A stretch of 64,000 bases of DNA from Nitrospirota bacterium (lineage in GTDB: Bacteria; Nitrospirota; UBA9217). Position numbers and translations under genes: made by a program. The stretch covers positions 704,001 to 768,000 of the forward strand of contig CAWBNQ010000003.1 in assembly GCA_963790205.1 (NCBI GenBank), given 5' to 3'. Under the pieces are notes generated by a model. That model had not been told where the DNA came from, did no database searches, and saw only the letters and a list, made by a program, of their open reading frames with translations. Positions within the stretch are counted from its first letter, which is position 1, and the number at the start of each line of letters is the position of its first letter. This document shows positions 10,715 to 30,984 of the stretch, piece after piece.

Positions 10715-12469
10715 ATGCACGAAAAAATATACAGAGGCATCGTGGCGTCGCCCGGCATCGTGATCGGCAGGGCTTACCTCCTCGACCGGCGAAAGATCGT
10801 GGTGGCGGGCCAGCGGATAGAGGACGTCAGCGTCAAGGACGAAGTGGCCCGGTTTAAGCGGGCGGTGGAGCTTTCAAGGACCCAGCTTGAGGACCTCAAA
10901 AAGCGCTTCAGCAAGGGCGTCGGAAAATCCCACCTCTATATCCTCGATACGCACATCATGCTTCTCGGGGACAAGATGCTGGTCGACGACACGGTCAAGC
11001 GGATCAAGGAATCGCACATCAACGCCGAGGGCGCGCTCACGGAAACCATTTCCGTGATCGGGCTCAAGTTCGACACGATCGAGGACGAATACCTCCGGGA
11101 GCGCAAACGCGACGTCGAACAGGTGGGGGAACGGGTCCTCAGGAACCTGGTCGGCCACCGCCAGGAGAGCCTCTCCAACATCAAGGACGAGGCGGTGATC
11201 ATCGCCCACGACCTTGCGCCGACCGATACGCTCCAGATGCGCAAGGACAAGATCCTGGGCTTCGCCACCGACGCGGGGAGCCGGACCTCCCACACGGCCA
11301 TCCTCGCCCGTTCGCTCGGCATCCCGGCGGCGGTCGGCCTCGAGAACATCACGGCGGCGGTCAAGACCGGGGACGTGGTCATCCTTGACGGCCTTCACGG
11401 CGTGGTGATCGTCGATCCCGACGAGGAGACGTTCCTCGACTACCTCAAAAAGCAGCGCCGGTATAAATACTTCGAGCAGGAGCTTGAAAAGCTCAAGACG
11501 CTTCCCGCCGAGACGCTCGACGGCCACGTGGTCCAGCTCCAGGGCAACATCGAGCTGCCCGAGGAAGCGACCTCCGCGGCGGACCACGGCGGGAGCGGCA
11601 TCGGCCTCTACCGCACGGAGTTCCTCTTTCTGAACCGGGAGACCCTGCCCACGGAAGAGGAGCATTACCGCGCCTACCGCCACGTGGCGGAGAAGGCCTA
11701 CCCGCATGAAGTGGTCATCCGCACGCTCGACGTGGGCGGCGACAAGATCGGCCTTCCCGGGGGCTTTGAAAAGGAATCGAACCCGGCTCTCGGTCTGCGG
11801 GCGATCCGTTTCTGCCTCCAGAAACGGGACCTCTTCCGGACGCAGCTCCGCGGCATCCTCAGGGCAACGGCGCACGGGAACATCAAGATCCTCTATCCTA
11901 TGATCTCCGGACTCCCGGAACTGTATGAAACCAAAAAGATCCTCGAAGAGGCGCGAACGGAACTCAGGGCGGAAGGCAAAAAATTCAACGAGCAGGCGGA
12001 AACCGGCATCATGATCGAGATCCCCTCGGCCGCAATGACCGCCGACCTGCTTGCCCGGGAAGTCGATTTCTTCAGCGTCGGCACCAACGACCTCATCCAG
12101 TACACGCTCGCGATCGACCGTCAGAACGAACATGTGGCATATATGTACGAGCCGCTCGACCCGGCCGTCCTCCGTCTGCTCCATCGCGTATCGGACGCCG
12201 CCCACAAAGCGAAGATCACCCTTGCGATGTGCGGCGAAATGGCGGGGGACCCGCTGTATGCCGCGATCCTGATCGGCATGGGGTTCCAGCACCTCAGCAT
12301 GAACGTCGCCTCGATCCCCTGGGTCAAGAAGGTGATCCGGTCGGTGCGCATGCAGGACGCGGTCGAGCTCGCGTCGCTCGTGATGCAGCAGCCCACGGCC
12401 GCGCTTGCGCGCAAGACCGCCGAAAACTTCATGGAAGACCGGTTCCCGGACCTCTGGGCGGAGCTGTAA
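10715..12469 (+). CDS. ptsI: PEP-protein phosphotransferase, PTS enzyme I
   Basis: GSRTSHTAILARS, GIGLYRTEFLF, RTLDVGGDK, NPALGLRAIR, GTNDLIQY, CGEMAG. Confidence 0.97.
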   Translation: MHEKIYRGIVASPGIVIGRAYLLDRRKIVVAGQRIEDVSVKDEVARFKRAVELSRTQLEDLKKRFSKGVGKSHLYILDTHIMLLGDKMLVDDTVKRIKESHINAEGALTETISVIGLKFDTIEDEYLRERKRDVEQVGERVLRNLVGHRQESLSNIKDEAVIIAHDLAPTDTLQMRKDKILGFATDAGSRTSHTAILARSLGIPAAVGLENITAAVKTGDVVILDGLHGVVIVDPDEETFLDYLKKQRRYKYFEQELEKLKTLPAETLDGHVVQLQGNIELPEEATSAADHGGSGIGLYRTEFLFLNRETLPTEEEHYRAYRHVAEKAYPHEVVIRTLDVGGDKIGLPGGFEKESNPALGLRAIRFCLQKRDLFRTQLRGILRATAHGNIKILYPMISGLPELYETKKILEEARTELRAEGKKFNEQAETGIMIEIPSAAMTADLLAREVDFFSVGTNDLIQYTLAIDRQNEHVAYMYEPLDPAVLRLLHRVSDAAHKAKITLAMCGEMAGDPLYAAILIGMGFQHLSMNVASIPWVKKVIRSVRMQDAVELASLVMQQPTAALARKTAENFMEDRFPDLWAEL

Positions 12470-12678: not shown

Positions 12679-13806
12679 GTGCAGCATACGGAAAATGCAA
12701 TATCCAATCCCCCGGGCACGCTTGAAAGCGCCCAAAAGACTGCAAGAGTTCACGGCGGCAACATCCATGGGGCGATAAAGCGTTACGGGCTCGAAGGAAA
12801 AAAGGTCCTCGACTTCAGCTCGAACGTCAACCCGCTCGGGCCCTCAAAAACGGCCAGGCAAGCGGCTAAAAAGGCGCTTGCGCTTATCGACCGCTATCCC
12901 GATCCCGATATGACCGAGTTAAGGAAAGCGATCGCGCGTTATTTCGGTATCAAACCAGGGCAGGTCATCTGCGGGAACGGGTCGAACGAACTCATTCATC
13001 TCATCCCGCGCGTGTTCAGGCCGAAAAAGGTCCTGGTCCCCATGCCGACCTTCACGGAATATGCCGCGGCCGTGGAAGAGGCCGGAGGAGAGGTCGTGCC
13101 GCTCCGGCTCGATGAACGGGAAGGGTTCCGGGTCGACCCCCTCGAAATGGCCTTCGCGCTCAAAGGAATGGACATGGCCTTCCTCTGCAATCCCAACAAT
13201 CCCACGGGCCTGCTCATGACCAGGGCGGAGACGGCCGAACTCATGGGACACGCGTTTCAATACGGAGTGAGACTGGTCGTCGATGAAGCGTTCATGGATT
13301 TCATCGAATCCGAATCGATCGTCAAGCAGGCCGTGGAAGCTTCGCAGCTCATCTGCCTCAGGTCCTTTGCCAAGTTCTTCGGCATGCCGGGCCTGAGGAT
13401 CGGATATGCCGTGTCCGATGAAGCGACGATAGCGGCCCTCCGGGCGGGCCAGGAGCCATGGGCCGTTAATATTCCGGCGGAGCATGCGGCCATTGCCGCG
13501 TTGAACGACTGGCGGTACATCAAAAAGACGCGCCGGGTGATCGAGAAGGAGCGTGACCGGCTCCTGTCGGACCTCCGGCTTCTGCCCGGCGTGGAGCCCT
13601 TTCCCAGCGCTGCAAACTTCATCTTCGTGAAAGTCGGTTCCTTCGACGCGCCCCTGCTCGTCGAGAAGCTCGGCCGCCGGGGCCTCCTGGTCCGCGACTG
13701 CTCCTCCTTTCCCGGTCTCGACAACGGTTTTGTGAGGATCGCGGTCCGGACGGGCCGGGAGAACCGCCGCCTTGTCAAGGCCCTGCGGGGGCTGCTGACC
13801 CGGTAA
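12679..13806 (+). CDS. cobD: Threonine-phosphate decarboxylase (PLP class I/II aminotransferase fold)
   Basis: HGGN, LDFSSNVNPLG, YPDP, GNGSNELI, CNPNNPTG, DEAFMDF, RSFAKFFGMPGLRIGY, VRDCSSFPGL. Confidence 0.85.
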   Translation: MQHTENAISNPPGTLESAQKTARVHGGNIHGAIKRYGLEGKKVLDFSSNVNPLGPSKTARQAAKKALALIDRYPDPDMTELRKAIARYFGIKPGQVICGNGSNELIHLIPRVFRPKKVLVPMPTFTEYAAAVEEAGGEVVPLRLDEREGFRVDPLEMAFALKGMDMAFLCNPNNPTGLLMTRAETAELMGHAFQYGVRLVVDEAFMDFIESESIVKQAVEASQLICLRSFAKFFGMPGLRIGYAVSDEATIAALRAGQEPWAVNIPAEHAAIAALNDWRYIKKTRRVIEKERDRLLSDLRLLPGVEPFPSAANFIFVKVGSFDAPLLVEKLGRRGLLVRDCSSFPGLDNGFVRIAVRTGRENRRLVKALRGLLTR

Positions 13807-14366
13807 ACGGCCCTGCTCCGCCGGCCCGCAACAGGCAAGTGGTCCTGCCTTGTCCACAGTCAATCATGCCGTAAGGCTTTAAAACCCCGGCCCTCTGCTC
13901 CATTCACGGGAACTTCGTGCACACGGGAATACAAACTCGGAAAATCAGAAGTCCGTTTCGGAACGATCGGTGTGATCTTCATTGGCGACGGAGCGCCTAC
14001 TCTCTACCTTGTGGCCGGCTCCGGCAACGCGATCACCGAAATATGCGAGGCCAAGAGCACCGCTATGGCCGCCATCAGCTACAAACCTGCCGCCCTGCAC
14101 GCGGGCCATGTATTTCTGCAACAAAGTGTTCTCAGGTTTTTCGAAGCTGAAAATCAGGGTTTCCCCGATTGACTTTCGAGTTCTAAAATATTATGGTTGA
14201 TGGAAAAAAGCAGGTTGCTCCAAAAGTACTTTCTGAAAATAGCACTTCCTTGCATTTACTGGTTCGACGATTCACGGTTAGAACAGTATCAGTATTCCCG
14301 CTTTCGCATTGCCGCATTACCTCGTTTAGCTTTTGCTTTAAAAATAAAATAAACGGAGAACAGACC

Positions 14367-14997
14367 ATGCAGGCTGCTGCTTGTATTCGAGGGAATGGAC
14401 GTGCGTTACTTTGCCTGAGTTTTTTCTTACTGCTTTCATTCGCTCATTCGTCTCCGGCGCAGCAGGTTCCTCCCGGCACCGTTAGCTGCACTGAAAGTGA
14501 TGATCGCAATGGTGAATACTATAAGGCATGTTCGGTAACGTGCGGGCCTGCGGATTGGGGCTATTCCGTTGATATCAGCATTTACGGCGATATTTGGGAT
14601 GCCCGTATAGGGGGGTACGGATGGGTTGAAACAGGATCCTACGGCGTGGCTTTGCAATGCGTAAATGGGTGGACAGCTAGTTGGGTGAACGTGGAATATG
14701 ATACCGAGGCATGGGTTGATTTCGACAACTGGGTGGCGATTCCCATTCCGGCCCCGCCCGCCGTCACCATCAACCCCGTGACCACACCGACGAATCTGCA
14801 AAGCCAGATGCTCAGCGGGACCATGAAGACAGGATCCACAATTGCGGTCACTTGCCCGACGGCAACAGTCGGCTCCGTGACCTATCCCACGTCCACATCA
14901 TGGACGGCAACGCTCAATATGCAGCCGGGGAACAATGCAATAACCGTTATTGCTACGGATTCCGCGGGCACTCCGTCCGCTCTTCAGACAAGCATAA
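14367..14997 (+). pseudogene. 5' part of a giant secreted RCC1/Ig-repeat protein gene (signal peptide, 4-Cys domain, Ig-like domain), cut by the mobile element
   Basis: GGAG RBS then ATG 14367 and a hydrophobic signal. Rejoins in frame to 17570 as ...QTSI-T-VNFPGTV... Confidence 0.85.
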
Positions 14998-15304
14998 TGT
15001 TAAGGCTTCTTTCTGAACGCTTTATTCAGAAAGAAGCTGGTTGGGCTAAGCCGTTGCGCGCCACGTCGCTATGGGATTTCAAATGATTTGTCAGCTTAAA
15101 ACGAAGTCCGCGGAGACAGCATTGGCAGGGGCGTGAGACTTGTTCGGGTGAAAAGCGGCGATTCCGGACTGCTCCGCAAGCCCCTTTCGTAAAAGACTAT
15201 ACAGGAAAAAGGGCTTTTGGGCAATAGGGTATCGTTGCGAAAGACGTGACTTTTTTCGGGGATGGATGTCGGAGTCGGGTTGTTCATTTCAGTGCTTGTG
15301 GTAA

Positions 15305-16498
15305 TCATATTCGCGGCGGTCCTTTGCAGCGCGCGGGCTGCATGATCTCGATTGTGCGCATTCTGCGTTCGCCGCAGGCAGGGCATTTGGCCACGTCAAT
15401 GCCGGCGATCCTGAGCAAAGCTTCCTGCCACGTCTCAGTCTTCTGCTCCGCCTCGTTCTGATCAACGCAGGCCAGAAGCTCTCTGCATTGGTCGAGTTTC
15501 TTTCTGCGGCATCTGTTTCCCAACAGACCGTAATGCCTGATTTTGACAAACCGGTCGGGCAGGACATGAAGCAGGAACCGCCGGATGAACTCATCGGCGT
15601 CCACGGTCATGATCTTGCTTTTGTTGCTGTCCGCGTAGTCGCGCCACCGGAAGGAGATCTTGTCGTCCATCATCTTCACGAGCCGGTGATTGCTGATCGC
15701 GATACGGTGGGTGTATCTGCCGAGATACTCAAGAACGCCTTTTGTTCCGTCGAACGGCGGCTTACAATAGACGACCCACTGCTTCTTGTACAAATCGGCG
15801 ATGAAGGCCTTGAAAACTCCCGGCGACGCAAGATGGCTTACGACGCCGGGGTAGACAAGTTTGTTCTCGGCACGGAGTTTTTTCAGATAAGCGAGAAACT
15901 TCCCCCGAAAGAGTTTCGACATGACCTTGACGGGAAGGAAAAAGCCATTCTTGCATGATTTCCATTTCCGTCCGCCCTTGGACAATCCGCCGCCGGTGAC
16001 GATGTTGTGGAGATGCGGATGATCCATAAGGTTCTGTCCCCAGGTGTGCAGGATCGAGATAAAACCGATTTCCGCGCCCAAGTGTTTCTGCGTATTCGAG
16101 AGTTCCGTCAGGGTTTCCGAAACGGCCTTGAACAGGATCCCGTAGAGGGCCTCCTGGTTCCGGAGCACAAGGGGATTGAGTTTATCGGGGATGGTAAAAA
16201 CGACATGGAAGTAAGGAATGGGAAGCAGGTCTTCTTCCCGGGCCTCGATCCACTGCTCTTTTTTAAGGAACTGGCACTTGGGGCAATGCCGGTTTCTGCA
16301 GGAGTTGTACGAGATCACTTTTGTCCCGCAGTGCTCGCATTCGTCCACGTGACCGCCTTGGTCGGCGGTGCGGCAGGTCTCGATCGCCCGCATGGCGCGA
16401 AGACGATTCAAGGGCATGGGATGAGCGTTCCGGTAAAGAGGACCGTACCGGCGAAAGATGTCCGCGACTTCGATCTGTAGGCTATCTCGCGTGTACAC
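15305..16498 (-). CDS. IS91-family rolling-circle transposase (Zn-binding domain + Y2 domain)
   Basis: CRT..GG...C..C...SCRNRHCPKCQ, YFHVVFT.P, HTWG...HPHLH (HUH), YLGRY (YxxxY), KIRHYGLL, C-terminal CPAC. Confidence 0.93.
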   Translation of the reverse strand: MYTRDSLQIEVADIFRRYGPLYRNAHPMPLNRLRAMRAIETCRTADQGGHVDECEHCGTKVISYNSCRNRHCPKCQFLKKEQWIEAREEDLLPIPYFHVVFTIPDKLNPLVLRNQEALYGILFKAVSETLTELSNTQKHLGAEIGFISILHTWGQNLMDHPHLHNIVTGGGLSKGGRKWKSCKNGFFLPVKVMSKLFRGKFLAYLKKLRAENKLVYPGVVSHLASPGVFKAFIADLYKKQWVVYCKPPFDGTKGVLEYLGRYTHRIAISNHRLVKMMDDKISFRWRDYADSNKSKIMTVDADEFIRRFLLHVLPDRFVKIRHYGLLGNRCRRKKLDQCRELLACVDQNEAEQKTETWQEALLRIAGIDVAKCPACGERRMRTIEIMQPARCKGPPRI

Positions 16499-16519
16499 CG
16501 CGGGTGTCGCGTGTGCAGG

Positions 16520-17377
16520 CTACGAGGTTTGTGGAGGATTTAAGAAGGGGCCTAAGTCCAGAGGGCTCACGATCTTTGAGAGGTTCTTTTTGCTCACGTG
16601 GAGATAAATAGTGGTCGTTCTCACCGACGCATGGCCGAGCAGAAGCTGAATATAGTGCAGATCAGCTCCCGACTCCAGCAGGTGTGTGGCGAAGCTATGC
16701 CGAAGCGTGTGACAACTTGCCGGCTTCGTGATGCCGGCTTTTTTCTTCGCGCGTTTGAACGCCTCTTGGACGGTGCTAATGGAAATGTAGTTTTCAGGCT
16801 TTTCTCCCGGAAAGAGCCAATGCGTCGGTCTATATTCTTTCCAGTATTCCCGAAGCGCTTCCAGCGCTACCTGGGATAAAAGGGTATACCGGTCTTTTTT
16901 GCCTTTGCCCTGGTCCACGCGTATCAGCATACGGCTGCTGTCGATGTCCGTGATCTTGAGCCGGGCGGTCTCGCTCGCCCGGAGCCCTGCCGAGTAGGTC
17001 ACCATCAGCATCACGCGCTGCTTCAGGCTGGGAGTGGCTTCGAACATGGCCTGTACCTCCTCCCGTTCGAGAACGATAGGAAGTGTCTTGGTCGTCTTCG
17101 GATAGGGAATCTTGTCCATCACCCAACCTTTGCCCAGCGTCGTTTCATAGAGGAACCGCAGCGCGCTGTAAGTTATCTTCAGGGTGGATAGCGATACCTT
17201 CTTATCCCGGACGAGGTAAAGCAGATACGCTTTGACATCGCCGTCTTCCAAAAGGTCGGGCGGTTTTTTAAAATGGCGTTCCATATCGCGCGCCGCCCGG
17301 TGATACAATGATTGCGTCTTCGGGGCTAATCCTCGAAGCACCATGTCGCCCTGCATCTGTTCTTTGAACGTTTCCAT
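16520..17377 (-). CDS. Tyrosine recombinase (phage integrase family, SAM-like N-terminal domain)
   Basis: Catalytic residues all present: YSAGLR, QGKGKKDR, HTLRHSFATHLLE, LLGH, TTTIY. Confidence 0.95.
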   Translation of the reverse strand: METFKEQMQGDMVLRGLAPKTQSLYHRAARDMERHFKKPPDLLEDGDVKAYLLYLVRDKKVSLSTLKITYSALRFLYETTLGKGWVMDKIPYPKTTKTLPIVLEREEVQAMFEATPSLKQRVMLMVTYSAGLRASETARLKITDIDSSRMLIRVDQGKGKKDRYTLLSQVALEALREYWKEYRPTHWLFPGEKPENYISISTVQEAFKRAKKKAGITKPASCHTLRHSFATHLLESGADLHYIQLLLGHASVRTTTIYLHVSKKNLSKIVSPLDLGPFLNPPQTS

Positions 17378-17569
17378 TGCATAATCTCCTTCCGTTGAAT
17401 CGAAATTCCAACGGCATGACGCCGATGGTGATGCGAAAGAAGATTGTAGAACGGTCAGGATTATGAAGCAAGGAGCGAGACGAAGAAAATCTATCGAGAT
17501 ATGCGGGGATGAATTGTAGAGAGACTTATTGGAATGCGAATAACACCGCCGCGCAGCGGCTTAGTTCAA

Positions 17570-20500
17570 CGGTCAATTTCCCCGGCACGGTCAGGTGCGA
17601 TGCATATGATAACGGAGGCGATTGGACAACGTGGTGTTCGATAACCTGCGCGCCTGCAGCTTCGGGCTATTCCGTTGATATCACCGTTAATGTCGCCGCT
17701 TCCGAGCTTGCCGAAGTAAATGCGGGAGGAGCATTCGGTCCTCCCGGCGGAACTTATACTCAGAGTGTGCAATGCAATAATGGGGTGGCATTCGCTTCAG
17801 TAGACGTGTACTATTTCGGCGGCGCCCCTAACACAACGTTTTCTTTCAATAACTGGACGCCGATCATCCCCCCTGGTACAGACGCCACGCCGCCCGCGGG
17901 CAGTTTTGCGATCAACAACGGAGCAGCCTCCACGAACAACGCATCGGTAACATTGACGCTCAACGCGACGGACAGCCAGAGCGGCGTCTCCCAGATGCAG
18001 TTCAGTAATGATAATACGACCTGGTCGACTGCTGAGCCTTACGCAGCGGCAAAGAGCTGGACCCTGGCCGCAGGCGACGGGGCGAAAACGGTATCCGCGA
18101 AGTTCAAGGACAATGCAGGCAACTGGTCAACGGCCGTTTCCAGCTTCATCCAGTTCGACACCTTGCCGCCGGCAACATCCGCCACGCCGGCGGGCGGCGT
18201 ATACGGCCCGGGCCTCATGGTGACTCTGGCGTCGAACGAAACCGCGACGATCTACTACACGACGGACGGAACCATGCCGACCACGGGTTCGGCGGCCTAT
18301 GTTGGGCCGATAAGCATATTTGCCGCGACGACGTTCAAGTACTTCGCTCTCGACACAGCAGGTAACAGCGGGCCGGTCAATACCGCCATCTATGAGATCG
18401 CCGCCTCTCCGCCTCTAGAAAGCCTGCTGATCAACAACGGAGCAGTCTATACGAACAGTCTGTCGGTGACGCTTACGCTCAGCTGCCCCGACGCGCTGAG
18501 CGGGTGTGCTTCAATGCAGTTCAGCAACGATAACAGTACCTGGTCGATGGTGGAGGCATTCACGCCGGCCAAGACATGGCAGCTTTCACCGGGGGACGGA
18601 CGGAAGACCGTGTACGCGAAGTTCATAAATGGCGCGGGGAACATAGCCGTATGCAGCGCCGCGATTATGCTTGATACGGGCCCACTGTCAACAACGTTAT
18701 CAACCAACCCACTATCGCCTGATGGCGTCGACGGCTGGTTTAAAACAATACCGACGATTGCGTTAAGCAGCAACGTATCGGGCACGACTTACTATCGGTG
18801 GGGGACAGGTGGATATTATTCTTCAAGACAACCCCATGAATGGATAAGCGATGGCACTCCTCTCAATATCCGCGGCGATGAAACCGGCAATTGGTATACT
18901 TTACCATTCAGTTTCACGTTCTACGGCACCAGTTACAACCAGGTCTTTCTCTCAAGCAACGGTCTGATGAGTTTTGAATCGGAAATCGCCGATTATTACG
19001 ATGGAGCGGGCCTGTCCAGCAGGCTCGCCATAGCCCCCTTGTGGGATGATCTGCAAACGGATACGCGTCCAGGTGATGATATTTATGTATTCCAGCCTGA
19101 TGCGGACTCAGTCGGATTCAGATGGCAAGCAGTAACCTATGGCAGCGAAATAGATACCAACTTCGAGGTCATTCTTTACCGCGACGGACGTATACGGTTC
19201 AATTACGACACACAAAACGGTGGTCTATACGGGACTATCGGAATTTCCAAGGGTGACGGCGTAAATTACAGCGTAGCATACGACGGTGATATTTCCACTA
19301 CGAATCATAGGGATTCTATTGTGTTTGCGCCAAGTAGGTGGAATGTCTACACAAACCCATTTGCCGCATTCAATGGAGAAAATATTTTATATTATTACAC
19401 CGCAGATAATAGTGGACATGTTGAAACAGCGAAGAATCAGTTATTCAAGGTCGATACCATCGTACCGATCGTAAGCATCACCTCGCCCCTGGCCGGGTTG
19501 ACAAACAATACCATGCCTCTGTTTAGTTACACGCTGAGCAAGGTTACGTCCACCAATACCGTGATGGTGGATGGAGTGACGGTGAATAAGCTGTCCGGCG
19601 ATACGTTGGATCCACTATCGTCAGGTCCGCATACGGTGCGGGTGGATGTCACTGACTATGCCGGAAATACGGCTTTTGCGGAGGTTGTATTCACGGTAGT
19701 GTCCTACGCGCCGAGCGTGAGCATCGTTTCGCCCGCGGCTGGGGCCGCGAACAATAGCAGGCCACTTTTGAGTTACCTGGTGAACTACGGCACGGTGACG
19801 GTGAAAGTAGACGGCGTAGCGGTAAATAAAACATCAGGAAACAATTTAGACGTACTTGCCGACGGACGGCATGCGGTGCGTGTGGAATCCGTGGATGCTT
19901 CGGGACATACAACTTTTTCCGAGGTGAAATTTGTCGTTGATACTACCCCCCCGCTGGCATCGGGTATGCCGAATTTCATTAAAATTGCTGCCGGAGACAT
20001 TCATTCAACGGCTATTACGAGTGATGGAAATATGTGGCAGTGGGGGCGCATACTTGATGAAAACGCATTAGAAGGTCGGTGGACCGATGTTGCCTCGCCT
20101 ACCCCAGCAGGCACAGCCTATGCGTGGACAGCAGTTGCTACCGGCTTGTCCAGCAATTTGGCTCTCAAGGCCGATGGAACATTATGGGCATGGGGAAATA
20201 ATCTATACGGTCAGTTGGGAGACGGTACTAATGTAGATAAATATTCACCGGTTCAGGTCGGCACAGCCGCCGATTGGAAGACGGTCTCCACGAGTGGTTT
20301 GCACAGTGTAGCTTTGAAAAACAACGGGACCTTATGGGCGTGGGGTGCTAACGAGTATGGCCAATTAGGGGGCGGTGCCCGTTACCGACAGTATACCGCG
20401 GTTCAGATCGGCCATGATACAAACTGGGCCGCAGTCTCAACAGGAAGTTGCCATACCATTGCGCTCAAGTCCGACGGTACCTTGTGGGCATGGGGCGCAA

Positions 20501-23500
20501 ACTCGAATGGCCAACTGGGAGACGGATCAGGGGCTGATCAATATGAACCGGTGCAAATTGGAAACGATACCGACTGGGCCGCTATCTCAGCAGGATCTTA
20601 TCATACGGTTGCTCTTAAGTCCGACGGGTCTTTATGGGCCTGGGGAGCAAACTCAAACGGTCAATTGGGAGATGGGTCAAGACTGGATCACTATGTTCCT
20701 GTCCGGGTCGAGGCTGATAACAATTGGGCTTCGATTTCGGCAGGATATGATTATACCGTGGTCCTCAAATCAGACGGGACGTTATGGGCGTGGGGAAGCA
20801 ACTCAAATGGTCAGTTGGGAGACGGGACAACTAATGATAAATACATTCCCGAACAGATAGGCGCGGAAAACACGTGGTCAATGGTTGCCGCCGGCGTGAT
20901 CCACACCTTGGCCCTGAAATCGAATGGAACGTTATGGACCTGGGGGGTGAACTGGTACGGCCAGCTCGGTGATGGAACGGAGCAGGATAGGATGACACCG
21001 CATTATACTTTTGCAGTCAGCGAGGCACTCGTTATAAACAACGGGGCGGCCGCGACGAACAACACGTCCGTTACCTTGACTCTGAATGCCTGGGATGTGA
21101 CAAGCGGATTGGCCTTCATGCAATTCAGCAACAATGGAGCAACGTGGTCGACTCCCGAGCCCTATACCTCGACCACGAATTGGGTGCTTGGTTCGGAGAA
21201 CGGAACGAAGACGGTGTATGCGATGTTCCAGGACGCGGCGGGGAACTGGTCCGCTCCTGTCAGCGCCTGGGTTATTCTAAACGCCGGGCCGACGAAAGTG
21301 AGCATTACCTCGCCAGTCGCCGGTTTTACGCAAAACAACGCGCCGTTGTTGAGTTTTGCGGTAAACAAGAGCGATACGGCGAATACCGTGAAGGTGGACG
21401 GCGTTGTGGTCAACAAGATCTCCGGCAACACGCTCGACGCTCTTGCCGAAGGTACGCACACGGTCCGGGTGGAAGCTGTTGATCCGAACGGAATAATGGG
21501 TTTTGCCGAGGTAACCTTTACGGTAGACAGCGTAATCCCGATCGTTACCATCACTGCCCCGGCAGCAGGCCTCTCGAACAACAATCAGCCCGTGCTCACT
21601 TACACGGTGAACAAAGATCAGACCTCGAATACGGTCAAGATTGACGGCGTTGCGGTCAACAAGACATCGGGTGATACGCTCGATGCGCTTACGGATGGTA
21701 TCCATAGACTGCGGGTTGAAACCACGGATCAGTACGGTTACCGTGCATTTACCGAGGTGTCCTTTACGGTGGACACGGAAGCGCCGGCAGGGATGGTTGC
21801 TTTGAAGTTCAAGTTCATTGACGCGGGAACGTATCATTCTACAGCAATTGCGCTGAATGGGACTTTATGGGCGTGGGGCCTAAACGGGGCCGGGCAACTG
21901 GGAGACGGAACGACAATCTCTAAACTTACGCCGACTTTGATAGGAACCGACACCGACTGGGCCGTGGTATCGGCCGGCGAGCTGCGTACGGTAGCGCTCA
22001 AGACGGACGGGAGTTTATGGGCTTGGGGAGCGAACAACAGCGGCCTGTTGGGAGACGGAACAAATGTTGATAGACACGTTCCGACCAGGATAGGAAGCGA
22101 TAAGGACTGGATTGCGATTTCAGCCGGCCAGGATCTCACTACTGCGCGTAAGTCAGACGGGTCCCTATGGGCTTGGGGATGGTTGGGAGACGGAGGGTAT
22201 TACGGAGGGTACGGTGATACCAATGTCCCTATCATGATAGGAGCGCCGGAATCTAGCGCGGTTTCTGCGGGTTCGACCACATTAACATATACCGGTAAAA
22301 CAGCGATAGGATTGCCGAAATCCAGTGCATTCTCTGCAAGCTTGAATACGGGGGAAGGCTATACGGGTTTGTATACCGATACCGGGGACGTCTCTGCGGG
22401 CGCTGCCTATCTCCTCGCGCTTCAAGAGGGGGCGCTATGGGCCGCAGGTCGGAATGATGCCGGTCAATTGGGCTTTAACGGATGCGAGCTCGAATTCTAT
22501 AGCTTCACCCAAGTGAGCACGGACACTAACTGGGCTGCCGTTTCGGCCGTAGCTGATCATAGCCAAGCGCTCAAGGCCGATGGGTCGTTATGGGCATGGG
22601 GAAACGGAGTGTCTGTCCCAACGAAAGTGGGGACTGATAATGATTGGGCCGCTGTTTCAGCAGGCGCGACCCATACGGTGGCGCTCAAGACCGATGGGAC
22701 GTTATGGGCGTGGGGGGTCAATACGTTTGGACAGCTCTGGGAGACGGTACCACTGTTGACAAACCTGCACCGATTCAAATAGGCTACGATACCAATTGGG
22801 CTACGGTCTCGGCCGGGGACGGCTTTACCCTGGCGCTCAAGTACGACGGAACGGTGTGGGCGTGGGGAATCAACTCGTCCGGCCAGCTGGGAGACGGAAC
22901 GACACAGAATCGCACGACGCCTCAACAAGTGCATTTCCCCGTCCTCGGATCGAACAATCCGATCGTGATAAATGGCGGCGCAGCCGTTACAAATAGCGCG
23001 TCCGTTACGTTGACGCTCTCCGTCTGGGACGCAACGAGCGGAACGGCATTCATGAAATTTAGCAACGACGGAGCATCCTGGACGGATCCCGAGCCTTATG
23101 CCACGACGAAGACCTGGGCACTCAGCCCTGGCGACGGCCCGAAGACGGTCTTTGCCATGTTCCAGGACAGAGCGGGTAACTGGTCGCTGCCGTATACCGC
23201 AATGATCGCTCTTGACACTGTCGCCCCGACCGTAGTCATAACCTCGCCGGTTTCCGGTCTTACAGACTACAACCGACCGCTTTTGGAATATACGGCGAAC
23301 GAGGGCATCGTTATCGTGAAAGTTGACGGTGTTGCTGTCAGCACAACATCAGGCAACACGCTCGATATTCTGGCCGACGGGAGTCATACTATCCGCGTTG
23401 AAGCAGCGGATGCAGCCGGAAACGTCGGCTACGCAGAAGCGACCCTCACTGTCGATGCCGTCGCGCCAACCGTATCGATAGCCTCGCCGTCAGCCGTGGC

Positions 23501-25172
23501 AACGAACAACAATACTCCAATGCTCACGTACTCCGTTAGCGATGGGACCGTCGTCGTAAAGGTGGACGGGGCAACAGTCAATAAGGTTTCGGGCAGTACG
23601 CTTGATCTACTTGCCGATGGAAGCCATACTGTGCGGGTAGAGTCAACGGACACGCGCGGCCGCACGAGTTTTGCGGAGGCGGTCTTCACGGTGGATACCG
23701 TTACGCCTGTCGTGTCTATAACATCGCCGGCCTCCGGTCTCACGAACAACAAAACACCGATGCTGACGTACGCGGCGAGCGATGGGACTGTTGTCGTCAA
23801 GGTCGATGGCGTTGTGGTGAACAACGTATCGGGCAGCACGCTCGCAGCGCTTTCCGACGGCAGCCACACCGTGCGCGTTGAAGCCGCGGACGCAGCTGGG
23901 AACGTAGGCTCAGCGCAGGTGAGTATCACCGTCGACACGACCCCGCCGACCGTAGCCATAACCTCGCCGATTGCAGGCACTACGAACCTCAATACGCTGC
24001 CCCTGATCTACACGGTAAACGACGGCGATGTCGTTGTGAAGGTGGACGGATCAGTCGTCAACATGGCCTCAGGCAGCACGCTCGACAATCTCACCAACGG
24101 CAGCCACAGCGTGCGTGTGGAAGCAACGGACGCGGTCGGCAACGCCAGTTTCGCCGAAGTGACTTTTACGGTGGACACCGCATCCGCAGGCAATGACGAC
24201 ACGAATATTTACTGCAAAGGCACCGGGACCTACCTTGTCGGACCGAGCAACTTCACCAGCGGGATCACCGTTCCATCGTCAAACAACGCCGTCCTGATCG
24301 CCTCGCCTGCAAACGGATGGACAATAAACGGACCAAGGACTATAATCAAAGGCGCAATGGACACGACAATACCGGTCAACAGCGTTATGGTACTGGTGAG
24401 CGGTAGTACAGGCACCGCAAGCTACGCAGCCCAGGTCAACGGGAAGTACTTTGCCGCCCAGATACCGGTAACCGCGGACATCAATACCATATCGGCCATT
24501 GCCACTGACCAGACGGGCACTCAACACCAAGCGAGCGTGTCGGTTACAGTCACAACCCAGCTGAACACAGTAACGCTTTCGGCCGCGCCGAATGTCGGCA
24601 TTCCAACCTTAAAGCAAGACGGCCAGACCACGCTAGATGTCTCTCTTATGTCGACACCTACGATTACAACCCAGGTCAGGAGCTATGCATGGGACTTCAA
24701 CGGGGCAGGTTCAAACGCAGTGATCTGCTATAGCCACTCCAATGTAACGGCGAGCTATCAGCAGACGGGTCTGTATCTTGCGACAGCGACTGTTGCTGAT
24801 ACGGCAGGGAACAGGTTTACCGATACGGCGATTGTGAATGTGCTGGATATTGCCAGTACGGATACGTTATTTAAGCAAATATGGACTGGGATGAAACAAA
24901 AGCTGTCTAACCAGGACGTTGAAGGTGCGGTGATCTACATCAATAATAATGGAGCAAGGGCAAAATACCGTGAGCTCTTCCAGCAGCTCTTGCCGCATCT
25001 TCCCACGATTGCCTTAAATATGAAAGATATCTCTTTAGATCATGTCAGTTCTGATGTGGCTGAATATAGAATAAGCCGAGCAGAAAATGTTAATGGCCAA
25101 ATGATGGAAATAACATACTTTATCTACTTCAGAAAAGATGAAAATGGGGTCTGGCAACTTGAAAGTTTCTGA
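17570..25172 (+). pseudogene. Remainder of the giant surface protein: 4-Cys domain, Ig-like repeats, NIDO-like region, two RCC1/BLIP-II propellers, PKD-like and C-terminal domains; 2-nt frameshift at 22735-22738
   Basis: Many [22 protein letters not shown] repeats and [14 protein letters not shown] Ig repeats. CAGCTCTGGGAGAC versus CAGCTGGGAGAC in the sister repeat at ~22884. Confidence 0.88.
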
Positions 25173-25205
25173 GGATAGAACCCGATTGCATAGGGAGACA
25201 ATTTC

Positions 25206-25844
25206 ATGATCAAAAAAATACCGGAACGGAAAAGACCATGCATGATTGTCATAGCGTTAATAATGGTGCTGCTCACCATGAACGGCAAATGGATCATCTT
25301 CCATGATTCATCGATAACGGGCTACGTAATAGACGCTGAGACGCGCAAACCGTTGGAAGGGGTTGTCGTGGCGGGGCTGTGGGAACTGACGCAGTATTTC
25401 AGTCATGGGTCCGGCGGTTATGCGAAAATAAGCCTCGTAGAAACCGACAAAGAAGGCAGGTTTAAGATTCCTTGTTGGCTCACCTTTAAACCCTGGACAT
25501 TTAATTCCAGTATGAGCGATGGCGCTCCGATAATTGTTATATATAAGCCAGGGTATAAGTTCTCTCATAGAGTTTTGCTAGCCCGTTACTCACACGATAT
25601 TGCTATGTCAGAAGAAGAAAGGCAGTATTTAAAAGAAACTAACAGCATTGAACCTGCGAAATTGAATAAAGTTTCGACTGATAAGGAGAGAATTCAAAAT
25701 TACGATGATTTAAAAACGACCATGAGCTTTCCGAGTTGGCATTATTCGAAAAAACAAACCCAAACAATTTATGATGCTCTTAGAGAAGAAATATCGTATC
25801 TCCCTATAGAAAAAGCTAATAAATTCGATGTTGGTGCCAACTGA
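25206..25844 (+). CDS. Exported protein with a carboxypeptidase-regulatory-like (prealbumin-fold) domain; candidate immunity or accessory protein
   Basis: N-terminal hydrophobic anchor, G.VIDAET.KPLEGVVV...W, TDKEGRFKIP, IYKPGY. Confidence 0.7.
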   Translation: MIKKIPERKRPCMIVIALIMVLLTMNGKWIIFHDSSITGYVIDAETRKPLEGVVVAGLWELTQYFSHGSGGYAKISLVETDKEGRFKIPCWLTFKPWTFNSSMSDGAPIIVIYKPGYKFSHRVLLARYSHDIAMSEEERQYLKETNSIEPAKLNKVSTDKERIQNYDDLKTTMSFPSWHYSKKQTQTIYDALREEISYLPIEKANKFDVGAN

Positions 25845-25874
25845 TGAGAATGGAAATATACGAGGGCTAACGAT

Positions 25875-28016
25875 ATGAAAAAAATAATCGGCTTTGTCTT
25901 GCTTTTATTGATACCAATAACGTCGCTTGGCTACGAAGTAAATGTGCATAAAGAAATAACAAAAAATGCCATTGCCTCATCAAGTATTGAGCAGTATTTA
26001 TTAAATAACCTCAATATAACATTGAAAAAAGATAAATTTGCATCAGATATATTTCGTAGTGAAACTGCCGAGGACTGGATGAAAGATGGCAGCGATTGGG
26101 AGGACAGCGACGCGACCCAAAGCTGGCTCAATCATTTTTATGATCCTACAACGGAGCAAGGATTAACGGGACCGGGCTTAAATGGTTCAGTAACAACCTG
26201 GGGGCAGCCGTCGCTCGTTTGGGGGAAAGATTACGTTGCAAATCTATGGAATTGGCATTGGGCGCGGGATGCGTACTACAACGCTTTGACGAATGCGGAT
26301 GCGGGTCTTAGAGACTTTTATAACGCAAAATTCTTCAGAAGTTTGGGTCAGGTAATGCATCTGGTTCAAGATTTGGCCAGCCCTGCCCATGTAAGGAATG
26401 ATCCGCATGGCGCACCGGGCGTACATTCTGATATGTACGAGATCTACACAAGAGATGCAGTCAATAATGGGAAGCCATTAAATTACACCGGCTATCCTGC
26501 AGTGGATCTTGGGACATTTAACAACTTTGACTCATTTTGGAAAAATGACGGGAAAGGTCTTGCAGAGTTTACAAACAGTAATTTTCTCAGCCGTGATACA
26601 AACTTCGGTACTGCCGGATACAGTATATATAAAGCTCCCAGTTATATCGGAGAAGGGATAGAAACTGAAACTGTTAAGGTCCTTCAATGGAATGGGCCGG
26701 ATGATTATTCTCCGCAGCTGGTGGATGAACAGGTTAATGTTAGATATTTTCAAGGTTACGCTGCCGACAATTATCGGAATAATCAGTCAGGACCTATAAA
26801 TCACTTAACAACTCTTTCTTATTTTGATTTTGAGGCTCAGCAATACGTCGGTAGCCGCGTATTTTCCTTAAATGACAAGGTCCATGATGATTATGCGCAA
26901 TACCTCATCCCCCGCGCCGTGGGCTACTCCGCCGGGCTTCTGAACTACTTCTTCCGCGGTACCCTCGATGTATCCTGGCCCGAAACCGGCGTCTACTCCA
27001 TCGCAGACGGCAGCCAGACGCCCTACACCGACGCACATGACAATCAGCACCAGCAGTTCACAATGATCAAAGCATCGATACTGAACACCACCCCGAACGA
27101 TACAATAGGCACCGGCACTCTCACGGCAGTAGCGCGGTACAAAATCATCCCCAATTACGCCCCCGATCTCTCAAACTACCCGCCGGACCCAGCGACAATG
27201 GCGTCGGTGTCGTATTCCTATTCTGTATCTAACGCGAAAACATTGACCAGTGAAGAGACCACGGCCATAAATACGGACTATGCCGATATCACCTTCGATT
27301 TCACCAATAGTCCCATCCCCGCAGGCATTACCGATCTCACGCTCCAGGTCGTGTTCAAAGGCACGATCGGCAACGAAGCAGACAACGCCATAGCCGTCGG
27401 CATGAAAGACATCACGGAACCCACGCACCTCGTGTTCTGGAACCTGTCGGATATGTTCTCCCTATCGTACCCCTCCGGCTCGGAATACGTCCTGTATACC
27501 TTTGAAACACTGCAAGCCATGGCGCAGCCGGGTACGGGGCTGTTAACCTTTCTGGATGACACGGGAGACAAATCATTAGATGATGAACTGTACTTACAGC
27601 CTGTCCCCTATACATTCAATATTTCATTCTGGAACGGCCAGGCAATGAGTCCGGCAGTAAACGTAGTTATTCCCCCAGGCCGGCATATCCGGATGATCGT
27701 GCTCACAAATCAGAGCACGAACAACTACTACGAATTGAAGTGGACCGACCCGACCCGTTCCGGCACCGTGACCAGCCCGTTCCCCGGGGTGGTGAACCAG
27801 GCAGACCAGAGCGGCGCTTACGGCACGCCGACACCTGTGGACACCTTCCGTCAAGGATACGGACCGGATGGCCAAACGCTCGTGCCGATCATCCAGCACA
27901 GTTACGATGGCATAGTCGGGTGTAAACCGGGGAACGGCACCTACTGTCCTTATCCCGACGAGGAAGCGGAGCCCGCCAGTTTGACGCCGATACCGTTCAC
28001 GTCGGATTTCAATTAA
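25875..28016 (+). CDS. Secreted protein with an N-terminal Zn-dependent phospholipase C / P1 nuclease-fold domain and an unknown beta-rich C-terminal region
   Basis: Signal peptide then YEVNVH, WED, NHFYDP, LGQVMHLVQDLASPAHVRNDPH, YE. This matches the ligand order of trinuclear Zn PLC/P1 enzymes. Confidence 0.72.
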   Translation: MKKIIGFVLLLLIPITSLGYEVNVHKEITKNAIASSSIEQYLLNNLNITLKKDKFASDIFRSETAEDWMKDGSDWEDSDATQSWLNHFYDPTTEQGLTGPGLNGSVTTWGQPSLVWGKDYVANLWNWHWARDAYYNALTNADAGLRDFYNAKFFRSLGQVMHLVQDLASPAHVRNDPHGAPGVHSDMYEIYTRDAVNNGKPLNYTGYPAVDLGTFNNFDSFWKNDGKGLAEFTNSNFLSRDTNFGTAGYSIYKAPSYIGEGIETETVKVLQWNGPDDYSPQLVDEQVNVRYFQGYAADNYRNNQSGPINHLTTLSYFDFEAQQYVGSRVFSLNDKVHDDYAQYLIPRAVGYSAGLLNYFFRGTLDVSWPETGVYSIADGSQTPYTDAHDNQHQQFTMIKASILNTTPNDTIGTGTLTAVARYKIIPNYAPDLSNYPPDPATMASVSYSYSVSNAKTLTSEETTAINTDYADITFDFTNSPIPAGITDLTLQVVFKGTIGNEADNAIAVGMKDITEPTHLVFWNLSDMFSLSYPSGSEYVLYTFETLQAMAQPGTGLLTFLDDTGDKSLDDELYLQPVPYTFNISFWNGQAMSPAVNVVIPPGRHIRMIVLTNQSTNNYYELKWTDPTRSGTVTSPFPGVVNQADQSGAYGTPTPVDTFRQGYGPDGQTLVPIIQHSYDGIVGCKPGNGTYCPYPDEEAEPASLTPIPFTSDFN

Positions 28017-28030
28017 GAACCGGTCATTCG

Positions 28031-28081
28031 CTCGACACTCTCACCGACGGTAGCCACGCCGTGCGTGTGGAGGCAACGGAC
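28031..28081 (+). pseudogene. Orphan fragment of the giant protein's Ig repeat
   Basis: Encodes LDTLTDGSHAVRVEATD. 45/51 nt identical to 24081-24131. Confidence 0.8.
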
Positions 28082-28778: not shown

Positions 28779-29954
28779 ATGACGACGAGATCCATCGATA
28801 ACGCGCGGGAACGGGCAGCGTCGCCCCTGTCGCTGCTGCCTGCTTCGGACCGGCCGACGGCGGCCTTCATCGACCTTGCTGCTCTTGCGCACAATTTTCA
28901 GGAAGTGCGCAGCCGGGCGCAGGGGCGAAAGGTCCTCGCCGTGGTCAAGGCTCAGGCCTACGGACACGGCGCGATACGCGCATCAAAACACCTCCTGGAG
29001 CTCGGCGCGGACACGCTCGGCGTCGCGCTCGTCGAAGAGGGCAGGGAGCTCCGCGAAGCGGGCATCGACGCCCCCATTCTCGTGATGGGCGCGGTCGTCC
29101 CCGGCCAGGCGGAGGCGCTTGTCGCCCTCCGGCTGACCCCGGTCGTGTTCACGCCGGCAATGGCCCGCGCGCTCTCCAGCGCCGCGCTCAGGCTGAAGAC
29201 AGCGGTCCCCGTTCACGTAAAGATCGACACGGGCATGGGCAGGATCGGCATCGCGCCCGAAGCCGCGCCCGCTTTTATCAGGGAGCTGCGGGACCTGGAA
29301 GGCCTCACGGTGCAGGGGCTGATGACGCACTTTGCCGAGGCGGACCTGCGGGACAAGCAGTTCGCGTCAATGCAGATGGACCGCTTCGGAACGCTGCTGA
29401 AGGAGCTCGACGCCCACGGGGCCGCGATCCCCCTCCGCCACGCGGCCAACAGCGCCGCCCTGCTCGATTACCGGCAGGCGCTCTTCACGATGGTCAGGCC
29501 GGGGCTCATGCTCTACGGGTACAATCCGCTCGAAGGGAAGACCGCGGGCGCGGACCTCTTGCCCGTGCTTTCCCTGGTGACGCGCATCGTGTTCCTCAAA
29601 AAGGTCCCGGCCGGCGTCCCCATCAGCTACGGCCGGACCTTTGTCACCGCGCGGGAAAGCCTTATCGCCACCGTCCCGATCGGGTATGCCGACGGTTACA
29701 GCCGCGGCCTCTCGAACAAAGGCGAAGCCCTCGTGCGGGGCGTCAGGGCGCGCGTTGCGGGCAGGGTCTGCATGGACATGTGCATGCTCGATGTGACCGA
29801 GGTCCCCGGCGTCTGCGAGGGCGACGAGGTCGTGTTGCTCGGGAAACAGGGCGGCCAGCGGATCACGGCGGACGAGCTCGCCGTCAAGACCGGCACGATC
29901 GCCTACGAAGTCCTCTGCGGCATCGGCAGCCGGGTGCCGCGGGTATACGTCTGA
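28779..29954 (+). CDS. alr: Alanine racemase
   Basis: AVVKAQAYGHG (PLP lysine), HVKIDTGMGRIG, HAANSAA, VRPGLMLYG, SYG, GYADG, GRVCMD. Confidence 0.97.
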   Translation: MTTRSIDNARERAASPLSLLPASDRPTAAFIDLAALAHNFQEVRSRAQGRKVLAVVKAQAYGHGAIRASKHLLELGADTLGVALVEEGRELREAGIDAPILVMGAVVPGQAEALVALRLTPVVFTPAMARALSSAALRLKTAVPVHVKIDTGMGRIGIAPEAAPAFIRELRDLEGLTVQGLMTHFAEADLRDKQFASMQMDRFGTLLKELDAHGAAIPLRHAANSAALLDYRQALFTMVRPGLMLYGYNPLEGKTAGADLLPVLSLVTRIVFLKKVPAGVPISYGRTFVTARESLIATVPIGYADGYSRGLSNKGEALVRGVRARVAGRVCMDMCMLDVTEVPGVCEGDEVVLLGKQGGQRITADELAVKTGTIAYEVLCGIGSRVPRVYV

Positions 29955-30079
29955 AGGCCTTCCTGCTCGAAAACGGGAAGCCAATGGGAAATTAAAAATT
30001 GGAAATTGACGGTTGCAACCTGAAATTTTATAGTTCTCATTGTTGCGAAGAGGGTCATAGGACGACAGAATGCATATCC

Positions 30080-30154
30080 CGTCATTCCGGGCTTGACCCG
30101 GAATCCAGTGATTTTACGATGAGACGCCGGACTCCCGCTTTCGCGGGATTGACG
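30080..30154. repeat. REP/RPE-like double-hairpin palindrome
   Basis: CGTCATTCCGGGCTTGACCCGGAATCCAG...TCCCGCTTTCGCGGGATTGACG. Related copy at 46273-46343. Confidence 0.75.
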
Positions 30155-30213
30155 AACACGTTCGCGTTTCTCATGAGCACCTTGGTACCTCTTCAATTGG
30201 GGCGAAGCTCCGC

Positions 30214-30984
30214 ATGAATAACTGGCTGGAGAAACTGGGCGACAAGGTCTTTCTGCTGCTGAGCGAGATGGGGAAAGTGCTCATATTCCTCGGCCAGACG
30301 CTCCGCTGGACGTTCAGCAGCCCCTTCTATGTGAAGAACGTCCTGAAGCAGATGGAGGAGATCGGCGTCAACTCCGTCCCGGTCGTGATGACCACGGCCA
30401 TTTCGACGGGCATGGTGCTGGCGCTCCAGAGCTATACGGGGTTCAAGCGTTTCGGCGCCGAGTCGCTCATCGGAGCGGTCGTGTCCCTCTCCATGACGAG
30501 GGAGCTCGGCCCCGTGCTCACGGGCCTCATGGTGGCCGGCCGCGCGGGGGCGTCCATGGCCGCCGAGCTCGGGACCATGAAGGTGACGGAGCAGATCGAT
30601 GCGCTCACGACCCTTGCCACGAACCCGATGAAATACCTCGTGGTGCCCCGGTTCGTCGCGAGCACGGTGATGATGTTCTTTCTCACGATCCTCGGCATGA
30701 TGATCGGCGTCACCGGCGGGTATTTCGTCGGCGTCAAGGTCCTCGGCACAAACCCGGTAACCTATTACAACCAGAGCATCAACAATACGAATGTGAACGA
30801 TATCTGGTACGGGCTGGTCAAGGCCCTCGTCTTCGGCGCGGTCGTCGGCCTGATCGGCTGCTACAAGGGGTTCAATACCGAGGGCGGCGCGGAAGGCGTG
30901 GGCAAGGCCACGACCGGCGCGGTGGTCATTTCCTGCATGCTCATCCTGATCCTGGACTATTTCCTGTCCGCGCTGTTATGGTGA
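30214..30984 (+). CDS. mlaE: MlaE lipid asymmetry ABC permease
   Basis: RELGPVLTGLMVAGRAG, AELGTMKVTEQIDAL, GAEGVGKATT.AVV. Confidence 0.96.
   Translation: MNNWLEKLGDKVFLLLSEMGKVLIFLGQTLRWTFSSPFYVKNVLKQMEEIGVNSVPVVMTTAISTGMVLALQSYTGFKRFGAESLIGAVVSLSMTRELGPVLTGLMVAGRAGASMAAELGTMKVTEQIDALTTLATNPMKYLVVPRFVASTVMMFFLTILGMMIGVTGGYFVGVKVLGTNPVTYYNQSINNTNVNDIWYGLVKALVFGAVVGLIGCYKGFNTEGGAEGVGKATTGAVVISCMLILILDYFLSALLW

Follow-up and report, generated by a model that had tools for sequence, protein, structure and literature searches.

What function a very large adhesin-like carrier, a small exported protein and a secreted hydrolase might share when they are encoded side by side is the question raised by a 64,000-nt stretch of a Nitrospirota genome (assembly GCA_963790205.1, contig CAWBNQ010000003.1, positions 704,001 to 768,000; hereafter the window). 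A sequence-only reading of the window had described three co-oriented genes 30-33 bp apart, and measurement agreed with this layout: on the forward strand, gene A (the carrier, whose C-terminal domain is termed TIP) ends at 25172, gene B (the middle gene) occupies 25206-25844 (212 amino acids, aa), and gene C (the enzyme) occupies 25875-28016 (713 aa), giving the order A-B-C with gaps of 33 nt and 30 nt, and the core parts of the module measure 111 aa, 185 aa, and 350 aa. Analyses of gene order, export signals, enzyme fold, metal site, recombination and displaced units, together with a predicted complex between TIP and C, suggest that the module is likely a polymorphic phospholipase toxin system whose architecture is not described in the literature searched. 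We consider it reasonably probable that the toxin is antibacterial, with C docked on the tip of A and cutting the phospholipids of a rival cell while B protects the producer and its kin.

The conserved module and its proteins

At least 513 relatives of C were confirmed in genome contigs, and the best 80 of them were fetched (eight with less than 1.5 kb of sequence upstream); the counts in this paragraph that concern C loci refer to these 80. TIP lies upstream of C in all 72 loci with upstream room, and the slot between them is filled by B in 65 (64 assigned by script, plus L043, a boundary artefact set by hand), by an unrelated gene in four and by nothing in three. The proposed co-occurrence and order of the three families are therefore conserved, and the middle gene is not universal. 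The module recurs in many phyla and in numerous uncultured bacteria: members of Nitrospirota, of beta-, gamma- and deltaproteobacterial groups, of Binatia, Rokubacteria, Acidobacteria, and others carry it. For loci L081-L124, which have short flanks and lie outside the open reading frame (ORF) scan, the regions around the tip matches were fetched instead. In the reverse direction, a search of 301 genomes of the phylum detected the tip in 44, and C was located within 3.5 kb of 56 of the 66 TIP ORFs identified without using C, a test biased toward C-linked tips because the tip profile was built from such tips. Seven of the ten TIP ORFs without C are near the end of their stretch (six with B next to them) and three are true orphans. 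C itself is present in 10 of 64 genomes of the window's family. No fourth conserved gene was observed beside the module among the loci compared, no paralogues of tip, B or C were found elsewhere in the source genome, and the nearest named homologues among the matches listed are from Nitrospirota.

C carries a predicted signal peptide (25875-25931, forward strand; small residue at position -1 and hydrophobic core) that would be cut directly ahead of Y20 and leave no propeptide, and in 105 of 109 unique homologues a simple pattern rather than a trained predictor placed the end of such a peptide immediately ahead of the residue that forms the first ligand. The following domain (25932-26960, forward strand) was assigned to the fold of Zn-dependent phospholipase C (PLC) on the basis of fold comparison, profile search and ligand conservation. 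A model of residues 20-369 built from a 65-row alignment (predicted local distance difference test, pLDDT, 91.5) matched the Zn-dependent PLC 1ah7 with a Z score of 18.5 (root-mean-square deviation, rmsd, 4.0; 221 residues aligned), the clostridial alpha-toxin N-domain with 18.4, Listeria PlcB with 17.0 and S1/P1 nucleases with 11.6-12.9, the next fold reaching 4.5; Foldseek gave the same ranking, E 0.001 not being attained. Profile searches with C retrieved PLCs only, among them the enzymes of Listeria and Bacillus (E 1e-7 to 3e-4), and Pfam PF00882 scored below its curated cut-off (18.3 versus 26.8 bits). C is thus closer to PLC than to S1/P1 nuclease (Z 18.5 versus 12.9), so that of the secreted PLC/P1-fold enzyme first proposed the PLC part stood and P1 turned out to be the farther match. 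The candidate Zn ligands picked by eye between Y20 and E189 are strongly conserved: H25, D77, H87, H162, D166, and H172 are each invariant in 109/109 unique homologues, E189 is kept in 108/109 (and invariant in the 65-row alignment), H178 in 98/109, and position 20 is Y, L, W, or F in 106/109. We take the ligand-to-metal assignment from the known tri-zinc set of the fold, and the first His lies five residues past the N-terminus, presumably as in P1. In this fold the free N-terminus binds zinc, and the Bacillus and Listeria enzymes are held inactive by a propeptide; with its metal-binding N-terminus free and no propeptide, C may be active once exported. C is likely a phospholipid hydrolase and may also have nuclease activity. 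C belongs to a large family, with 3,530 clusters at 50% identity (E <=1e-30) and 8,817 clusters at 1e-3. It had no Het-C Pfam match, and in the Atlas it matched unnamed clusters first and then, as leads only, PLC and Het-C-related clusters below 0.9. None of the three core domains has a Pfam match over the cut-off or an NCBIfam or PADLOC name.

Carriers are alike over roughly their last 270 aa and freely variable before that point, where RCC1, Lcl_C, FG-GAP, YncE, NHL, SBBP, fn3, and PKD domains occur, which bears out the expectation of variable N-terminal stalks. In a domain scan covering 43 of 66 carriers, Glucodextran_B was detected in 35, typically about 270 aa from the C-terminus; in the window, Glucodextran_B-type Ig and PKD-like domains (the latter by a PKD match) precede the tip at 24366-24833 on the forward strand, with approximate borders. 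TIP itself (24837-25172, forward strand), noticed by eye as a compact alpha+beta domain, was modelled as an NTF2/cystatin-like fold with a pLDDT of 95 (Z 10.0, rmsd 2.8, and 96 aligned residues against an NTF2-fold chain, with many ties) and is the predicted enzyme docking site. It ends within 5 aa of the C-terminus in 39/39 carriers, and searches of NCBIfam, PADLOC, and PDB sequences returned nothing useful for it.

In a three-chain complex prediction with the tip as partner, TIP and C scored 0.79 versus 0.07 for the best control; of 157 solved complexes 116 attained the score mark, and of 215 mismatched pairs two did, a calibration that is rough here given three chains and our own alignments. 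At least 79% of the contacts were common to the runs, with a partner pLDDT of at least 85. Most predicted contacts fall on a beta-strand insertion of the C fold (about residues 256-334), the closest being residues 288-290 and 313-321 against the tip hairpin and helices, and further contacts at residues 178-198, on the rim of the metal site, include H178 and the E189-bearing helix. No B residue was listed at the tip interface in the three-chain job with B present, where the control with C replaced (0.07) is uninformative on TIP-B. Across 67 loci, TIP distances showed a partial r of 0.34 with the C insertion and 0.07 with the head, kin not being independent, and the insert-minus-head difference was positive in 99% of 200 resamplings. 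No TIP-C-like complex was seen among the PDB matches of tip and enzyme. Taken as model-based evidence, these results support binding of TIP to C. Of the idea that a stalk docks a phospholipase or nuclease effector at the cell surface, the docking part is thus supported by the prediction and the surface part is not, as 0/39 complete carriers have a lipobox and only 2/39 a weak internal hydrophobic stretch; with no anchor evident, the carriers are more easily reconciled with a released complex than with a surface stalk. A search for longer proteins gave three, with propeller, Ig, or lectin tails, and no sign of a fusion between carrier and enzyme, which is weak negative evidence; an apparent B-C fusion in L012 was discarded as it spans a run of N.

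The middle gene (25206-25844, forward strand) encodes an exported or anchored candidate immunity protein, as judged from domain scans and its N-terminal pattern. B combines a carboxypeptidase-regulatory-like (prealbumin-type) N-terminal sandwich with a variable C-terminal half; CarboxypepD_reg was matched in 51/73 members and DUF6795 in 6/73. The anchored 212-aa protein originally described was confirmed in length, and a hydrophobic N-terminus is present in 142 of 145 B proteins, 31 of which have a lipobox. PDB sequence searches with B gave only matches of E >0.1, and the Atlas returned unnamed clusters. Tandem B genes occur in L008, L028, L048, L055, and L065, and in ten distinct units (12 rows, of which two are duplicated) a shortened C head precedes a second B, one unit ending in 237/244 nt identical to the full gene. 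Of 22 candidate stretches, 20 were fetched, and in six of these B stands alone with unrelated genes around it; unrelated genes fill its slot in L007, L009, L010, L047, and L175, and small membrane proteins or propeller-like proteins are found in, or added to, that slot. Such displaced head fragments, orphan B genes, and unrelated stand-ins look like those of polymorphic toxin-immunity loci, and on such indirect genomic grounds B is likely the inhibitor or immunity protein of the producer. Standalone proteins of about 130-190 aa made of a signal peptide and a tip also exist (L160, L164, L168, L169, and L171, and also L020, L061, L147, and L148), and they replace B, accompany B, or stand alone. 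Five loci contain a carrier, a standalone signal-peptide tip and C without B, so the free tip may do B's job; B was present in 1 of 6 genomes of the family with standalone-tip loci, where H178 is Leu. These observations suggest that a free tip protein can substitute for B.

Cassette exchange across gene boundaries

Comparison of the window with L156, a locus of the same family, revealed DNA identities of 74% over 23794-24847 and 78% over 26889-28016 and no match between. The unmatched segment (24848-26888, forward strand), which is also low in GC and in GC at third codon positions (GC3), comprises TIP, B, and the signal peptide and catalytic domain of C, and thus forms a swapped cassette that crosses two gene boundaries. 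The earlier proposal that tip, middle gene and toxin domain are exchanged as one cassette was borne out, the borders lying tens of bases from those estimated by eye, and the AT-rich block seen by eye at about 24850-26900 has a GC of 0.415 over 24851-26900, a value as low as which was found in 19 of 2112 genome tiles of the same size (tile mean 0.551). TIP, B, and head of the window are 46-50/44-48/49-56% identical to those of L001, L034, and L005 but 36/28/34% identical to those of L156, whereas its flanks are 57/80/73% identical to those of L156 and 22-43% to those of the other three, and this reciprocal pattern makes fast evolution of the middle alone unlikely.

Four more pairs with matching flanks and unmatched middle were found among 67 loci (L002/L019, L022/L143, L145/L149, and the two L030 copies). 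On the right-hand side, DNA similarity returns 62-102 nt ahead of the point where the LIPRAVGYSAG motif ends in 10 of 13 rows; on the left-hand side, it breaks off between 8 nt upstream and 88 nt downstream of the start of the tip in 6 of 9 rows. The rows count the window pair twice, and a conserved motif draws alignment ends by itself. Within C, GC3 steps from 0.44 to 0.76 at 26925, inside the LIPRAVGYSAGLLNYFFRG motif (26904-26960, forward strand), which forms the last helix of the fold, is its most conserved stretch, and marks the right-hand crossover zone according to conservation, the GC3 step and DNA matches. GC3 lies below that of the flanks in B and the C head at 36-38 of 43 loci.

The variable tail of C (26961-28016, forward strand), recognized from head/tail discordance, is exchanged without regard to the head. 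In a set of 294 C proteins, 199 pairs had tails of 60% identity or more, and in 137 of these the heads were lower by 20 points or more; the reverse comparison gave 154 of 224 pairs (local-alignment identities, non-independent pairs in both). Some pairs combine tails 97-98% alike with heads 23-32% alike. The tail is likely a second binding module; Pfam matches at 1e-4 were obtained in 4/50 C proteins, with PD40, BNR, or InlB-B-type repeats in three and a weak GEVED in one.

Function, rival explanations and known systems

The reading that we consider reasonably probable would work as follows. A and C would leave the cytoplasm by the Sec pathway, and C, whose metal-binding N-terminus this export leaves free, would be active in the producer periplasm and need an inhibitor, a part played by B. 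C would then pair with the NTF2-like tip of A, the unanchored A-C complex might exit by type II secretion, and the variable N-terminal propellers of A together with the variable C tail could choose the target, so that C would be brought to a rival cell and hydrolyse its membrane phospholipids. Joint swapping of TIP, B, and head may keep the matched surfaces in register and change toxin and immunity specificity. An export route is present, given signal peptides on 105/109 C proteins and signal-like N-termini on 35/39 complete carriers, and the source genome has a gspC-M type cluster (named by eye from its ORFs) with GspK; a GspK-like match was found in 37 of 44 TIP-positive and 179 of 257 other genomes, with a short model that also matched in Bacillus. 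The absence of type VI secretion system (T6SS) markers noted earlier was upheld, as VipB was not found in the 98%-complete genome although the control search was positive in E. coli; without VipB and with a signal peptide on C, the enzyme does not resemble a T6SS effector.

Several observations weigh against this antibacterial reading. The route of C to phospholipid behind a Gram-negative outer membrane is its weak point, and only one enzyme fold is ever carried, unlike in classical polymorphic toxins. TIP gene and C are adjacent without a middle gene in L038, L039, and L041, all ligands being kept in L038 and L041, and B was not found in 4 of 5 searched incomplete genomes lacking the middle gene; B is thus absent from some lineages, where an essential immunity gene would be expected. 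B distances correlate at 0.38 with the C insert and 0.24 with the catalytic head, which does not support the idea that B tracks the head only. In 3/20 stretches, HEAT-repeat proteins follow B or are fused to it, so that B may be a general partner domain. Displaced C-head fragments are mostly 55-87% identical to the full copy and have often lost late ligands, a pattern expected from copies that were duplicated locally and then decayed no less than from a store of alternative heads. Furthermore, GC3 of TIP is below that of the flanks at only 26/43 loci, implying that the left cassette border may vary, and in the single close strain pair available (peat-metagenome run X1) the cassette differs by 1 base and the C tail is the part altered.

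A variant that we regard as possible but clearly less probable is a distinct class of diffusible two-subunit antibacterial weapon in which the tip is both tether and safety cap, the enzyme travels inhibited and is freed at the target, a free tip replaces B, and two shuffled binding modules flank a swappable cassette; the role of safety cap is drawn from the predicted contacts with H178 and the E189-bearing helix at the rim of the metal site. Nutrient scavenging, with A scaffolding a phospholipase or nuclease on particles or biofilm for phosphate and B acting as a folding or export helper, seems unlikely to us. Secreted PLC/P1-fold enzymes with scavenging roles are known, and PlcR serves PlcH as such a helper; the invariant active site, the single cargo fold, the dispensability of B in some lineages and the secreted phospholipase and nuclease versions noted in the accessible portion of PMC3482391 would all agree with it. 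However, it predicts neither the block exchange of TIP, B, and head, nor low GC3 confined to B and head, nor orphan and tandem B genes and thousands of 50% clusters, and no transporter or phosphate gene is a conserved neighbour among the loci compared.

The outer membrane problem would vanish if the effector acted on predators or eukaryotes, damaging protist or fungal plasma membranes whose phospholipid is exposed, with B guarding the producer during export and variation reflecting an arms race. We give this explanation about the same small weight as scavenging: the nearest solved folds are membrane-damaging PLCs and Het-C, of the same fold, is active in fungi according to the part of PMC3482391 consulted, but orphan B genes without C are best explained by foreign C in a bacterial periplasm, and the exchange of B together with the head suggests a conflict among kin. 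A further alternative is a lock for adhesion or self/non-self recognition, in which matched TIP-C pairs join or label kin and the enzyme, rather than killing, acts in signalling or envelope remodelling. It would explain why TIP and its predicted partner surface are swapped together and why free signal-peptide-TIP proteins exist, and Het-C controls fungal incompatibility (PMC3482391, same portion). Yet A shows no anchor, and adhesion alone would require neither so strictly conserved a hydrolase site nor a middle slot that resembles one for immunity, so we find this the least probable of the alternatives.

How does the module compare with known systems? Among T6SS Tle/Tli pairs and the orphan modules of contact-dependent inhibition (CDI) and Rhs systems, too, phospholipases preceded by a gene for periplasmic immunity, immunity genes in tandem, and displaced modules are known, whereas C has its own Sec signal, VipB was not found in the genome, and the displaced modules lie upstream rather than downstream. 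In CDI and two-partner secretion a TpsB transporter gene stands beside the carrier, and the toxin sits covalently at the carrier C-terminus; here that place is taken by an NTF2-like tip and there is no conserved fourth gene, and a search for a TpsB transporter with the ShlB family gave no match even in control genomes. C is like Bacillus cereus PLC, Listeria PlcB, clostridial alpha-toxin, and S1/P1 in fold and metal-ligand set but differs from known Zn-PLCs in identity (17-18%), a large beta insertion, no propeptide, a variable tail, and dedicated partner genes. With polymorphic toxin systems, as described in the accessible portion of PMC3482391, the module shares an exported hydrolase, cassette recombination, and an adjacent small variable gene, and displaced or orphan modules and an export route are classical traits also found here. 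In the classical systems of that source, however, the toxin is the C-terminal domain of the carrier and takes many folds, whereas here a separate protein carries it at its N-terminus, the single enzyme fold follows TIP in 56/66 cases with no other enzyme seen, the candidate immunity gene lies upstream, and the cassette is internal and spans two gene boundaries. The same portion lists Tox-HET-C as its one PLC/S1-P1-fold toxin, with no immunity family.

Streptomyces umbrella (Umb) particles (PMC11062931, consulted in part) are likewise secreted multi-protein complexes with separate variable binding proteins and a polymorphic toxin, but they are actinobacterial and their toxin repeats scaffold five lectin-tipped spokes, in contrast to the predicted single NTF2-tip contact in Gram-negative phyla; compared by that description, no Umb-type domains were found in Pfam scans of A, B, and C. 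S8-PTS (PMC9424270, consulted in part) is likewise a three-component locus with signal-peptide toxins and immunity, but it belongs to Gram-positive bacteria, has a peptidase as third gene, and carries C-terminal toxins of 16 kinds. Umbrella particles and S8-PTS thus resemble the module in their multi-gene logic and had none of its parts among those that could be compared. A published description of the module was not found in the literature searched, outside which lie most subscription papers and supplements (those of PMC3482391 could list the family), and no papers were found for DUF6795. In genomes of Nitrospirota, deltaproteobacteria, betaproteobacteria, and Acidobacteria that have been little studied, the module would represent a large family of candidate systems for antagonism, with the usual polymorphic-toxin layout inverted and a cassette crossing two gene boundaries by which the predicted protein interface stays matched. 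If true, Zn-PLC would join the antibacterial effectors, and the small core parts are directly testable in E. coli.

Interruptions of the carrier gene and surroundings

Gene A (14367-25172, forward strand) encodes a signal peptide, two Cys-containing N-terminal domains, Ig/Fn3/NIDO domains, two RCC1 repeat blocks, an Ig stalk and the conserved C-terminal block, Pfam confirming the RCC1 repeats and Ig domains recognized by eye. The two Cys-containing regions (14460-14760 and 17570-17900) are copies, 34% identical, of a domain of about 110 aa without Pfam match, with an Ig domain between them. The reported length of 2,743 aa is right for the uninterrupted allele, as seen from ORFs, Pfam and length arithmetic (631+5165+2436 = 8232 nt, that is, 2743 codons plus stop), but in this assembly the gene is broken twice, by an IS91-like element and by two extra bases. 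A contig of run X1 (11,887 nt) omits precisely 2572 nt and is without the two extra bases; the 2,743-aa protein therefore exists in a close strain, and the carrier has probably been lost from this assembly's copy with B and C still intact.

The IS91-like element (14998-17569, reverse strand, 2,572 nt) is not part of the system and was identified by Pfam Y2_Tnp, Zn_Tnp_IS91, and Phage_integrase matches and by the X1 joint. It encodes a Y2 transposase (15305-16498) and a tyrosine recombinase (16520-17377), and its border may be set 2 nt earlier as an AA dinucleotide is common to both ends. Seven copies, more than 99.8% identical, are present in the genome; each sits between YAA and Y with no target duplication beyond the shared AA, three have the same 25-nt right flank, and one contig of run X3 joins the element end to its own start, as in a circle or tandem. 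We assume that its crossover resembles integron-type AA|C sites. The two extra bases (22735-22736, forward strand) shift the frame inside the second RCC1 block, as seen from the overlapping ORFs 17509-22782 and 22644-25172 and their absence from the X1 contig, and represent either a strain mutation or an assembly error; two secretin genes of the same assembly are likewise split into two frames. These belong to the gspC-M type cluster (G000 C12:30000-42000) and to a second type II secretion system (T2SS)-like cluster (C3:270500-278800), whereas a pilM-Q type cluster (G000 C2:114762-119899) is intact, all names by eye. A link of the module to type IV pili was considered and rejected, pilT/pilR-like genes lying by few loci without being conserved.

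In strain X1/X2, an 88-nt segment of the C tail is replaced by 85 other bases (27463-27552), substitutions are clustered near the end (27812-28006), and 11 of 14 amino-acid differences from the window fall in residues 531-566. Just past the C stop codon, a 53-nt remnant of a carrier Ig repeat (28029-28081, forward strand; 81% match to the L156 Ig stalk) may be the trace left by a lost tandem unit of the kind found in L030, L126, and L152. In L159, transposase-like ORFs (3317-4569) break C just ahead of the LIPRAVGYSAG motif. B-family genes stand beside or are fused with large HEAT-repeat proteins in L190, L193, L194, and L005, and in L194 a HEAT protein of 1,043 aa takes the place of C after a tip fragment and B. 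In L017, a YD-repeat protein and a second very large exported protein (13313-21134) follow the module, with T2SS-like genes upstream. The module in the window is flanked by a phosphotransferase system operon with a class I aminotransferase and by genes for alanine racemase, a Mla-type ABC transporter, galU, and lon (7794-12469 and 28779-36040 regions; names by eye from translations), and lon is apparently split into 34370-36040 and 36003-36782 (name likewise by eye).

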